Shown piece after piece: positions 2,970-23,915 of a stretch of DNA of 32,000 bases. A program made the translations under genes and the position numbers. Every line of letters starts with the position of its first letter. Position 1 is the first letter of the stretch. The stretch is taken from contig NC_000909.1 of NCBI RefSeq assembly GCF_000091665.1, forward strand, positions 880,712-912,711, in the 5' to 3' direction. The notes under the pieces were generated by a model that was not told the DNA's origin, searched no databases, and worked only from the letters and a program-made list of their open reading frames with translations. The DNA comes from Methanocaldococcus jannaschii DSM 2661. Lineage in GTDB: Archaea; AGJL01; Methanococci; Methanococcales; Methanocaldococcaceae.

Positions 2970-3043
2970 GGGCCCATGGTCTAGCTGGCTATGACGTCGC
3001 CCTTACAAGGCGAAGGTCGCCGGTTCGAATCCGGCTGGGCCCA
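2970..3043 (+). tRNA. tRNA-Val (anticodon UAC), no encoded CCA
   Basis: Hand-folded cloverleaf: acceptor GGGCCCA/TGGGCCC, D stem GTCT/GACG, anticodon stem TCGCC/GGCGA with loop CTTACAA (anticodon TAC), T arm GCCGG-TTCGAAT-CCGGC, discriminator A. GC-rich island in AT-rich DNA. Confidence 0.93.
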
Positions 3044-3046
3044 CTA

Positions 3047-22105: not shown

Positions 22106-22124
22106 TATAAGACATTATTTATAG

Positions 22125-22355
22125 ATTAAAATTAGCCATTTCGGAATGGAAATCTGTCTAAAATGTAGTGTTTCCATTTAAATGTCTCAGTTAATTAAAT
22201 CAGACCGATTCGGAATGGAAATAAGGACTGGGATGGATTTGCATTTAATAAAGATATGTAATTAAAATCAGACTAATTCGGGATGAAAACTAAGTTTCTT
22301 TCTGTCTCCTTAGCTTCCAATATTGATTAAAATCAGCTTTTAAGAGGTTAAACGT
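22125..22355 (+). CRISPR. degenerate four-repeat CRISPR remnant (ATTAAAATCAGACCG.TTCGGAATGGAAAT family)
   Basis: Repeats at 22125-22153, 22194-22222, 22261-22290 and a half-decayed copy at 22326-22355. Periods are 69/67/65 nt; unique spacers are 40/38/35 nt. The repeat resembles the Methanocaldococcus short-repeat family as I recall it. Confidence 0.8.
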
Positions 22356-22410
22356 GGACGTGATTCACAGTTAGGTAGAAATTCATAAAAATAGTAATAT
22401 TATAAAGTGT

Positions 22411-23223
22411 TCAGTAATAAATATTACAAACTATTGGATTTTTTAAAATAGATAATGCATCTTCTAATGTTTCTTTTTTTGAAATGCAGAATAAAGTATT
22501 TCCTAACATGGATTGTGAAGCTCCAACTGTAAATTTTAAGTCTTCACAGATGGATAAGATTTTCTCATTTATTAGTCCAGTATTTACTGCAAATTCATAA
22601 GAAAGATTGACAAAATTTTCCAAAGTAGGATTTTTTAAAAGCTCATTTAAGCATCTCTCTCCATATTCATTTATTTTTTTAATCCAAATATCATTAGTTA
22701 TTATCTCTTTTGTCTCTTTTTTACCAAAAATTTCAATTATAATGTAGTAATCATCATCAACAACGATTTTTTCAACATTTATAGGAAATCCAGGAGTTTT
22801 TCTTATGACAAAACCTTTAACATATTGAGCAATAACATCTCCCAATCCAGTTCCACATTCTACTTCGCTTATATGGGCTATCTCTGCATAATTTTCATTT
22901 AAATTCAACATTTCATTTAGTTTTTTAGCTAATATTAAAGCACATCCTCCAGACATTCCTAATCCACTACCTAAGGGAAAGTCAGATGAAAATATTATGT
23001 CATAATCATCATTATATCCAAATTTTTTATAATGTTCAATAACTTTTTCAACGGCACAGATATTTACTTTCTTATTATTATAAAAAATACTACCATTTCC
23101 TTCTTTTAATTCTACATTAACTCCTCTATCTATAGTAATTCCTGCCCCTATAGAACCAGTTTTTAACTTATTGGAAGATTTACAAATTACAAAAAATCCT
23201 GTTATGTGCCCTGGAGCAAACAT
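22411..23223 (-). CDS. pok: pantoate kinase (archaeal CoA pathway, GHMP kinase family)
   Basis: GHMP motif PLGSGLGMSGGCA; 270 aa, the size and architecture of archaeal pantoate kinases. Strong AAGGAGGT motif before the ATG. Confidence 0.75.
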   Translation of the reverse strand: MFAPGHITGFFVICKSSNKLKTGSIGAGITIDRGVNVELKEGNGSIFYNNKKVNICAVEKVIEHYKKFGYNDDYDIIFSSDFPLGSGLGMSGGCALILAKKLNEMLNLNENYAEIAHISEVECGTGLGDVIAQYVKGFVIRKTPGFPINVEKIVVDDDYYIIIEIFGKKETKEIITNDIWIKKINEYGERCLNELLKNPTLENFVNLSYEFAVNTGLINEKILSICEDLKFTVGASQSMLGNTLFCISKKETLEDALSILKNPIVCNIYY

Positions 23224-23363: not shown

Positions 23364-23513
23364 TACTTATCTTCCAAATGCTCTATCGATAATTATCTCT
23401 ACCCATAGGAGGATACCTCCTATTGGGATACCACTTAACACCTCCTCGCTTACGCTCGGAGGTGTAAATTGACATGTTTCTACTTATCTTCCAAATGCTC
23501 TATCGATAATTAT
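23364..23513. repeat. perfect 33-bp direct repeat (23364-23396 and 23481-23513) flanking an 84-bp GC-rich twin-hairpin insert
   Basis: TACTTATCTTCCAAATGCTCTATCGATAATTAT occurs twice, verified base by base. The right copy is the last 9 codons plus stop of the chelatase gene. Hairpins lie at 23405-23423 and 23438-23465. Confidence 0.9.
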
Positions 23514-23915
23514 ATCAACAATTCTATCATCTGCTCCAATAGGTTCTCTATATATAATTTCAACGTCTTCTGGAATCTCTAATTTTTCATGTTCATGATG
23601 ATGGTGGTGATGATGGTGATGGCTGTGTTCATGATGATGTTCATGGTTATCTTCAATCAACCCCAATAACCTTGGAATATCTCTTGTTGTATGAATTCCA
23701 TGAGCTAAGAAAACAGGAACAACAATGATTCTTTTAGCCCCTTGTTCTATAGCTTTTTTAACTGCTTGAGGTATTGTTGGCTCACTAAACTCCATCAAAC
23801 CAATTTCAACTATTGGGAATAAATTTCTCTCTTTAACTTTCTCAGCTAACTTTACCAGAAGCTCTTTGCTGTAGGGTAATCTACTCCCATGTCCTACTAA
23901 AACCAACGCTTCCAT
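23484..23915 (-). CDS. cbiX: small CbiX-type sirohydrochlorin chelatase (CbiX-S / CfbA-type, Co or Ni) with His-rich insert
   Basis: LVLVGHGSR and VVPVFLAHGIH class II chelatase motifs. The tract HEHHHEHSHHHHHHHHHEHE has 15 His in 20 residues (nt 23586-23645). Confidence 0.88.
   Translation of the reverse strand: MEALVLVGHGSRLPYSKELLVKLAEKVKERNLFPIVEIGLMEFSEPTIPQAVKKAIEQGAKRIIVVPVFLAHGIHTTRDIPRLLGLIEDNHEHHHEHSHHHHHHHHHEHEKLEIPEDVEIIYREPIGADDRIVDIIIDRAFGR

Follow-up and report, generated by a model that had tools for sequence, protein, structure and literature searches.

An 84-bp hairpin insert at the 3′ end of cfbA in Methanocaldococcus jannaschii is one copy of a repeat family associated with long, variable duplications of gene ends

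Repetitive extragenic palindromes (REPs) and bacterial interspersed mosaic elements (BIMEs), as known from Escherichia coli and relatives, are palindromic units in variable order and orientation which lie just 3′ of genes, vary in content between strains and could have effects as part of 3′ untranslated regions (3′ UTRs). In the archaeon Methanocaldococcus jannaschii, palindromic repetitive elements called MJREs are said to number 141 copies in three groups, some of them in frame within genes. Here we analysed a window of 32,000 nucleotides (nt) of the M. jannaschii DSM 2661 chromosome (NC_000909.1, positions 880,712 to 912,711), in which the 3′ end of cfbA (also cbiX) is duplicated around an 84-bp GC-rich insert carrying two hairpins. 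The insert and its relatives resemble the MJREs in their host genus, in being short, GC-richer palindromes in extragenic DNA and at gene edges, and in that some copies alter or extend coding ends. We know of no report of a long variable target duplication, of gene-end polarity, of junction microhomology or of modules shared with the long repeats (LR) that flank CRISPR arrays. The MJREs were described by Suyama, Lathe and Bork in 2005 (FEBS Lett 579:5281, cited in PMC2229807 and PMC2996958), and M. jannaschii repetitive DNA was also treated in the 2007 thesis of E. Li (cited in PMC2699501); the passages of the citing papers that mention MJREs do not give their consensus sequences. A literature search for MJRE1-3, for target duplication in Methanocaldococcus and for MITEs (miniature inverted-repeat transposable elements) together with CRISPR returned nothing specific, the MJRE paper itself being outside its coverage.

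The 84-bp insert is not a unique RNA gene; very probably, it is one copy of a hairpin repeat family specific to Methanocaldococcus, made of repeated mosaic palindromic elements whose insertion is accompanied by duplication of the target. Taken by itself, the locus is an ordinary member; it is the insertion signature of the family as a whole that is the notable part.

One genome per species was scanned with the pattern ACACCTCCNNGCNNNNGCNNGGAGGTGT, which thereby fixes the stem of the second hairpin of the insert (hereafter module B), and this hairpin was found 14 times in four Methanocaldococcus genomes. A scan of vent metagenomes added ~33 Methanocaldococcus-like contigs. Once oriented by the conserved flanks (TT)AATTT-B-TA, the copies fall into 33 distinct contexts. 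The other modules are A (CCAATAG-stem-CTATGG, preceded by GGTATNCC), C (TTGATGAAAC..GTTTCAT), B′, which is a variant of B, and a further partner with a 16-bp stem. They are arranged as B-A (the type found in the window), B-C, A alone, B-x-A, B′-A, B′-Arc-B-C-A or Arc-B-C-A, where rc denotes the reverse complement, in non-coding inserts of ~40-240 bp. Neither module of the insert has a second copy within the window, and the 84-mer has no match in the plasmid collection. A preliminary description of this DNA had offered a miniature insertion as one of two candidates and had named other copies and empty sites in relatives as what to look for. Both were found, since hairpin B occurs at ~30 other sites with their own duplications and empty cfbA sites exist (see below).

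To characterise the flanks, the 300 nt on the left of each copy were aligned locally to the 300 nt on the right, with 429 random positions from the same loci as control. The alignment score was at least 40 in 26 of the 30 copies, compared to 21.4 on average for the controls, whose 99th percentile was 37. The duplicated segment, called X (and X′ for its free copy), has a different sequence at every site. Its lengths are 23, 23, 26, 32, 33, 33 (or 39), 35, 40, 40, 44, 46, 50, 50, 54/64, 63, 63 and 86-91 bp, with ~20 bp at one further site, so that duplications range overall from 20 to 91 bp, with no more than about a third between 26 and 35 bp. Around a solo A hairpin (43 bp), the duplication is 36-37 bp long.

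These duplications bear directly on two conventional explanations. Like classical MITEs moved cut-and-paste by a transposase encoded by an insertion sequence (IS), the elements are small, non-coding, multi-copy and flanked by direct repeats, and genes for DDE transposases exist in these genomes. This origin is nevertheless very unlikely given that the elements have no terminal inverted repeats (TIRs), that one of their ends is undefined and that the duplication varies four-fold, far beyond any DDE stagger; at the cfbA locus of sp. 28A, a true TIR-bearing MITE has quite another appearance. The preliminary description was thus right to set the long repeat apart from an ordinary MITE target-site duplication. 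Its other suggestion, an att-like duplication, would make the locus the scar or attachment (att) site of an integrative element that targets the 3′ end of cfbA and carries its own copy of the gene end. The direct repeat does rebuild the 3′ end of the gene, as happens with integrases that target gene ends, but just 84 bp separate the repeats and no integrase gene lies nearby in the window. Because every copy has a different repeat, the same modules being present at ~30 other sites, an att site is in practice excluded.

The two ends of the elements are not equivalent. The hairpin end is sharp, with X′ beginning 0-7 nt past ..CTATGG, ..CTATGC or ..GTTTC, while the opposite end is ragged and carries an AT-rich tail of 0-25 nt, different in each copy. 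At 13 of 13 independent 3′-end loci, the gene on the tail side reads toward the element, with its stop codon at -8 to +13 nt relative to the X|tail junction; in 6 of these 13, the stop codon is now inside the tail and the C-terminus is altered by a few residues. At 3 other loci, X spans the ribosome-binding site, the ATG and the first codons of a gene reading away from the element. The mirror arrangement, with reversed polarity at a gene end, was observed at no locus. The hairpin end is always joined within coding DNA and the AT-rich end at a gene edge. With few exceptions, the duplication covers a gene end, so that the target gene remains intact. At the hairpin-end junction, there is a microhomology of 2-4 nt. 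In particular, 5 of the 7 elements ending in ..CTATGG have TGG within the initial 5 nt of X (background frequency 0.042), and X starts with AT at all C-ended loci, extending GTTTC to GTTTCAT. Two lineages, represented by L011 (4236-4387) and L075 (965-1091), carry different B-A elements, with distinct tails and A stems, at the same TGGTTATGG/TGGTTATGGAAC site of the same gene end, which suggests either an insertion hot spot or turnover of element content.

In the window, the 33-bp direct repeat TACTTATCTTCCAAATGCTCTATCGATAATTAT is present exactly twice, at 23364-23396 and 23481-23513, and no such pair is expected by chance (0 in 100 shuffles). With 2 mismatches, it extends to 39 nt (23364-23402 versus 23481-23519). 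The right 33-bp copy comprises the last 9 codons of the CfbA open reading frame (ORF), its stop codon (23484-23486) and 3 nt, and is the genuine gene end since it is contiguous with the ORF. The two perfect copies and the identity of the right one had been reported correctly. Read on the minus strand, the direction of cfbA, the genuine target copy X (23481-23519, that is, the last 11 cfbA codons, the stop and 3 nt, with the perfect part at 23481-23513) is followed by the AT-rich filler or tail GAAACATGTC (23471-23480), which separates the conserved element from the stop-codon side of X. Next come module B with its conserved 5′ flank, AATTT-ACACCTCC-GA-GC-GUAA-GC-GA-GGAGGTGT (23438-23470), and the B-A spacer TAAGTGGTATC (23427-23437), part of a TAG-GGGTATNCC linker conserved in the alignment of 13 B-A type copies. 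The sharp end of the element is the module A hairpin CCAATAGGAGG-TAT-CCTCCTATGG (23403-23426), whose GGAGG variant is also found in L063 (related loci are designated by L numbers). It is followed by the free copy X′ (23364-23402), perfect over 23364-23396 and diverged at 23397-23402, which reads GTAGAG versus GTTGAT in the genuine copy.

On the plus strand, the first hairpin reads CCATAGGAGG-ATA-CCTCCTATTGG (23403-23426) and the second ACACCTCC-TCGCTTACGCTC-GGAGGTGT (23438-23465), each with an 8-bp stem. Both are as previously described, and they are the sole GC-rich hairpins with stems of at least 8 bp in the window. The G+C content of the insert is 40/84 (48%), versus 21% in adjacent intergenic DNA and 31% in the whole window. 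Its termini are GAAACATG.. and ..CTATGGGTAGAG; TIRs are absent from the 84 bp, and the ends vary among family copies.

The history of this site was examined in relatives. Contig L005, from another sequencing run and 99.9-100% identical, has 0 mismatches to the window over 2.8 + 0.7 kb, and its cfbA site is empty: it contains a single 33-mer copy and lacks exactly 117 bp, the spacer between cfbA and the downstream kinase gene being 144 nt there versus 261 nt in the window. The site is also empty in sp. 16A, sp. 10A and M. lauensis, all three of them complete genomes. In M. vulcanius, cfbA has no element on its 3′ side, and the downstream gene differs. In sp. 28A, no element of this family is found at the site, and an unrelated TIR-bearing insert lies a few bases away. 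This ~100-bp insert (L083, 1645-1745), just downstream of cfbA, has the terminal inverted repeats AGGACTTTCGCG.. and ..GTGCGAGAGTTCT and resembles a classical MITE; a DDE transposase gene is located at the end of the same locus.

Other relatives are occupied. M. bathoardescens carries tail-B′-A with a duplication of ~20 bp, and an uncultured lineage (L079-81) a 240-bp mosaic, B′-A(rc)-B-C-A. FS406-22 (L076, 1945-2210) has a GC-rich insert of ~270 nt with several hairpins, which has no Rfam match and ends with a decayed A hairpin and a decayed X. The right junction CTATGG|GTAGA is common to the window, L079 and FS406-22. In all three, free copies keep a GTA codon and genuine copies have GTT, while GTA is still present in the genuine copy of M. 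bathoardescens. From the shared junction and this codon pattern, the site appears old: it seems to have been occupied before the lineages of the window, L079 and FS406-22 split, with element content turning over since. A recent insertion, for which L005 would represent the ancestral empty site, was initially considered and was dropped in view of the junction shared with L079 and FS406-22. Most simply, and more likely, L005 arose by a precise secondary deletion through recombination between the 33-mers.

Exchange between the two copies would also account for their similarity. A lineage-specific substitution is present in both repeat copies, G in the window versus A in L079 (GGAAGATAA/GGAAAATAA). 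The same holds for L017, L026 and L044, which represent one locus in three lineages and where lineage-specific substitutions occur in both copies of the duplication. As far as can be judged from the sequences, these patterns indicate gene conversion between repeats only 75-85 bp apart. The 33/33 identity at a site of apparently old occupation would likewise reflect conversion between the two copies of the window.

We then considered whether the insert could be an independent structured small RNA gene, transcribed from the minus strand in the gap between cfbA and the kinase gene, with B as a protein-binding GA-motif/GNRA hairpin. The preliminary description had proposed such a discrete minus-strand RNA from the GNRA loop and tandem G-A pairs of the second hairpin, and B does read GA / GC-GUAA-GC / GA on this strand. 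The insert is a GC island in AT-rich DNA, and its predicted fold reaches -36.4 kcal/mol (z -6.1 versus shuffles) on the minus strand. It partly resembles the terminal hairpin of the Rfam family GA-cis. At ~14 of 18 sites, the strand carrying the GA form has the sense of the adjacent upstream gene, and this strand folds better in 19 of 21 copies, by ~2.6 kcal/mol on average. The strand asymmetry noted earlier therefore holds in this respect, but the plus strand lies equally far above shuffles (-32.3 kcal/mol, z -6.3). In Rfam searches with the window and six related loci, no element hit was obtained at the gathering threshold, the best one, to GA-cis, scoring 15.5 bits against a cut-off of 34.7 (E = 1.4), and the window has no T-run 3′ of either hairpin.

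Comparison of family copies argues further against an RNA gene. The tetraloop of B is GUAA, GUUA, AUAA or AUUA according to the copy, so that the GNRA loop is not conserved, and one G of its G-A pairs is replaced by A (giving A-A) in two copies, L014 and L065. Two others (L021, 4853-4880, and L028, 4198-4225) carry the 12-nt centre of B in inverse orientation to the conserved flanks, so that it reads TCGCyTACGCTC versus the usual GAGCGTAAGCGA, as if the loop had flipped between the arms of the palindrome. The internal loop is a symmetric 2x2 loop (GA/GA) without the 3-nt bulge of a kink-turn, which disfavours an L7Ae site, for which a binding test had been suggested earlier. In module A, 16 variants share the base CCAATAG/CTATGG while the tops of their stems are wholly different and fully compensated. 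Perfect palindromes of this kind are equally expected from DNA-level processes, and the variable stems contain 43 Watson-Crick pairs and 0 G-U, which fits palindromes maintained at the DNA level. These pairs were counted per variant by script, the MAFFT alignment of B-A copies being too ragged in the 3′ arm of A. In addition, the modules are shuffled and take other orientations in the CRISPR-flanking LR and in 5′-end insertions, and the locus is dispensable, being empty in a near-identical genome and in five species. Altogether, an RNA gene appears improbable. If transcription reads through, the element is surely transcribed within the cfbA 3′ UTR, and a secondary effect of its hairpins on the cfbA mRNA, as a 3′-UTR element, is possible.

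We give a probability of roughly 0.6 to the reading in which the insert is a REP/BIME-like element, probably an MJRE, that spreads by microhomology-primed copy-and-paste and is lost precisely by recombination between its repeats. As to how this might proceed, we tentatively propose, as a plausible guess rather than the expected outcome, a mechanism in which a growing DNA strand would switch template twice, a copy-and-paste process independent of any transposase. The strand would copy the gene end and exit the target around the stop codon, where the DNA is AT-rich. It would then copy a donor element, entering at a variable point upstream of the TTAATTT-B flank, which would generate the variable tail. 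It would stall on reaching the terminal hairpin, at its base (..CTATGG or ..GTTTCAT), re-anneal through 2-4 nt of microhomology 20-90 nt back in the gene and copy X again. The polarity could arise from base composition, the hairpin end, which contains G and C, having its microhomology in coding DNA and the TTAATTT end in the AT-rich stretches around stop codons; selection would then remove gene-breaking insertions. The resulting direct repeat would later permit precise loss and gene conversion, which would explain why the site is empty in a near-identical genome and why the 33-mers are identical at a site that appears old. The four-fold variation in length, the hairpin-defined end with its microhomology, the ragged end with its filler, the lack of TIRs and the reuse of modules do not fit a DDE transposase, nor do they fit an integrase of the site-specific kind or a ruler of the Cas1 type.

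Several observations weigh against this interpretation. No intermediate, donor copy or enzyme for the spread was identified, and a search for donors of the tails in ~400 kb of related-locus DNA retrieved just chance AT-rich 11-mers. At the right junction of the window itself, the microhomology is just 0-1 nt. Template switching alone does not explain why only these elements serve as donors, nor why the AT-rich junction stays so close to stop codons when longer intergenic DNA is available. The bias toward the sense strand (~14 of 18 sites) might reflect selection for an RNA function. Since L005 is a k=31 short-read assembly, it might have skipped the loop of a 33-bp repeat, a problem from which the empty sites in complete genomes of other species are free. 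Finally, the family is probably that of the MJREs, an identification drawn from citations of their description.

The template in the copy-and-paste scheme could be DNA or a hairpin-protected RNA, and an RNA-templated version resembling a short interspersed nuclear element (SINE) would give the same picture. In its full form, this alternative supposes a retroposed small RNA, namely a hairpin-protected 3′-UTR fragment copied by target-primed synthesis, with a precise 3′ end, a variable 5′ end and variable duplications. The elements indeed have one precise end, at the hairpin base and with microhomology, one variable end and a variable duplication length, and most copies have the sense orientation within 3′ UTRs, the regions from which such RNAs would derive. 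However, no gene for a reverse transcriptase came to light, and we know of none in these genomes; an A/U-rich 3′ tail is lacking, and both the loop inversions and the Watson-Crick-only stems point to DNA-level processes. Retroposition is thus unlikely on present evidence, although sequence data alone cannot separate it from DNA template switching.

The modules of the family are also found beside CRISPR arrays, where the order A(rc)-B-C-A constitutes the conserved ~250-300-bp LR of these genomes. The conserved LR is usually called leader. In LR copies, an extra CRISPR repeat adjoins the terminal A hairpin (..CTATGG) on the outside, and the array side has a degenerate repeat. The names long repeat and short repeat (LR/SR) go back to Bult et al. 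1996 (see the summary in PMC1282333). In L020 (3296-4661) and other arrays, the strand matched by Rfam CRISPR-DR13 is GTTAAAATCAGACC..GGAAAT, and by this orientation LR lies 3′ of the array. L020 and L056 have a common spacer beside LR, and their arrays differ further along.

This organisation raises the question of a Cas1-type integrase, acting as off-target Cas1-Cas2 or in a casposase-like manner, in which two attacks about one CRISPR repeat length apart would duplicate the target. The bracketing of LR by a CRISPR repeat outside and a degenerate repeat inside is what such an activity might leave, and little-diverged duplications of 33, 35, 33, 32, 28 and 26 bp are close to the 30-bp repeat length. 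On the other hand, lengths spread from 20 to 91 bp (with 46, 50, 54, 63, 64 and 86 among them) do not fit a molecular ruler, inserts of 43-240 bp do not have the size of spacers, and microhomology and variable filler are present at the junctions. On the basis of this spread, a Cas1 ruler was rejected as the general mechanism, and a Cas1-type origin of the family has little likelihood. A link with Cas1 may nevertheless exist for a subset of copies, given the repeat copies on either side of LR and several duplications with a length near 30 bp. A more far-reaching idea, which we regard as doubtful, is that the family represents a distinct class of archaeal selfish DNA without a transposase, making precisely reversible insertions that would each duplicate 20-90 bp of a gene end, and thereby spare the gene, by hairpin-stalled, microhomology-primed switching or by another enzyme (e.g. 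a Cas1-type integrase), and that the same process built the LR flanking every Methanocaldococcus CRISPR array.

As for the neighbourhood of the insert, cfbA (23484-23915, minus strand; PF01903 CbiX) encodes a protein of 143 aa which is 100% identical to the protein named M. jannaschii sirohydrochlorin nickelochelatase, and its ORF is intact despite the insertion. The histidine-rich tract of CfbA (HEHHHEHSHHHHHHHHHEHE) corresponds in the DNA to an imperfect tandem repeat with a period of 9 bp (23590-23650). Downstream lies a gene of the GHMP-kinase family (22411-23223, minus strand), previously called pantoate kinase. Beyond it, at 22124-22357 on the minus strand, we found a decayed mini CRISPR array with 3 degenerate repeats (23, 25 and 21 matches out of 30) spaced by 68-69 nt and with a repeat-like LR remnant; L076, L078 and L079 keep intact repeats at this position downstream of the kinase gene. 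A tRNA/tmRNA scan of the window detected only tRNA-Val (2970-3044). Among the related loci, L009 was at one point suspected to be another cfbA locus owing to ORFs of the same sizes (143 and 365 aa), and was discarded as the proteins are unrelated. L009 (5680-5810) and L021 (320-450) share a separate family of long palindromes, with a 12-bp-stem core, TGAAyyCCTTCCATwAGGAAGGrrTTCA, whose stem covaries, and with outer inverted repeats of ~17 bp, without flanking duplication. A C/D box sRNA (Rfam sR39, 63 bits) is present at 1385-1448 of L010, ~1 kb from a copy of the element.

Such repeats were already reported in M. jannaschii twenty years ago, and in this respect the locus alone is one more copy. 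The signature of the family is nonetheless unlike that of any described prokaryotic mobile element, in that it associates long, variable duplications preserving gene ends, a sharp hairpin end, a ragged AT-rich end, polarity, concerted evolution and turnover of content. If it holds in complete genomes, it would offer an accessible example, in a hyperthermophile, of DNA mobility without a transposase, and a possible origin for the modular LR beside Methanocaldococcus CRISPR arrays. It would also caution against annotating every GC-rich hairpin island of an AT-rich archaeal genome as an RNA gene.

Compared with known systems, the family combines features that are otherwise found apart. Small, non-autonomous, multi-copy elements with direct target repeats include MITEs such as Sulfolobus SM, Neisseria Correia and RUP, but these have TIRs and a fixed duplication of 2-10 bp, whereas the present elements have no TIRs, duplications of 20-91 bp and one ragged end. 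Cas1-Cas2 spacer or 'neo-CRISPR' integration and casposons similarly duplicate a target, of ~30 bp in the CRISPR case, in a repeat-insert-repeat configuration, and family modules do lie between repeats by the arrays. Here, in contrast to CRISPR integration, the length is not fixed and the insert is a repeated hairpin family rather than spacer-sized DNA; casposons differ by duplications of 14-15 bp, TIRs and genes. REPs are tied to REP-associated tyrosine transposases (RAYTs, IS200-like) and lack long target duplications; they have no sequence similarity to the present elements, whose host is archaeal, and no RAYT (IS200-like Y1) transposase is encoded near the element in the window. Variable duplication, microhomology, filler and the combination of one precise and one ragged end are encountered in fork stalling and template switching (FoSTeS), microhomology-mediated break-induced replication (MMBIR), quasi-palindrome switching and the target-primed insertion of SINEs and long interspersed nuclear elements (LINEs). 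Such events are usually sporadic and use unrelated templates, unlike the single hairpin family reused here with a consistent gene-end polarity. The closest counterpart of the architecture is the bacterial REP/BIME, and the closest counterparts of the insertion signature are template-switch or target-primed insertions.

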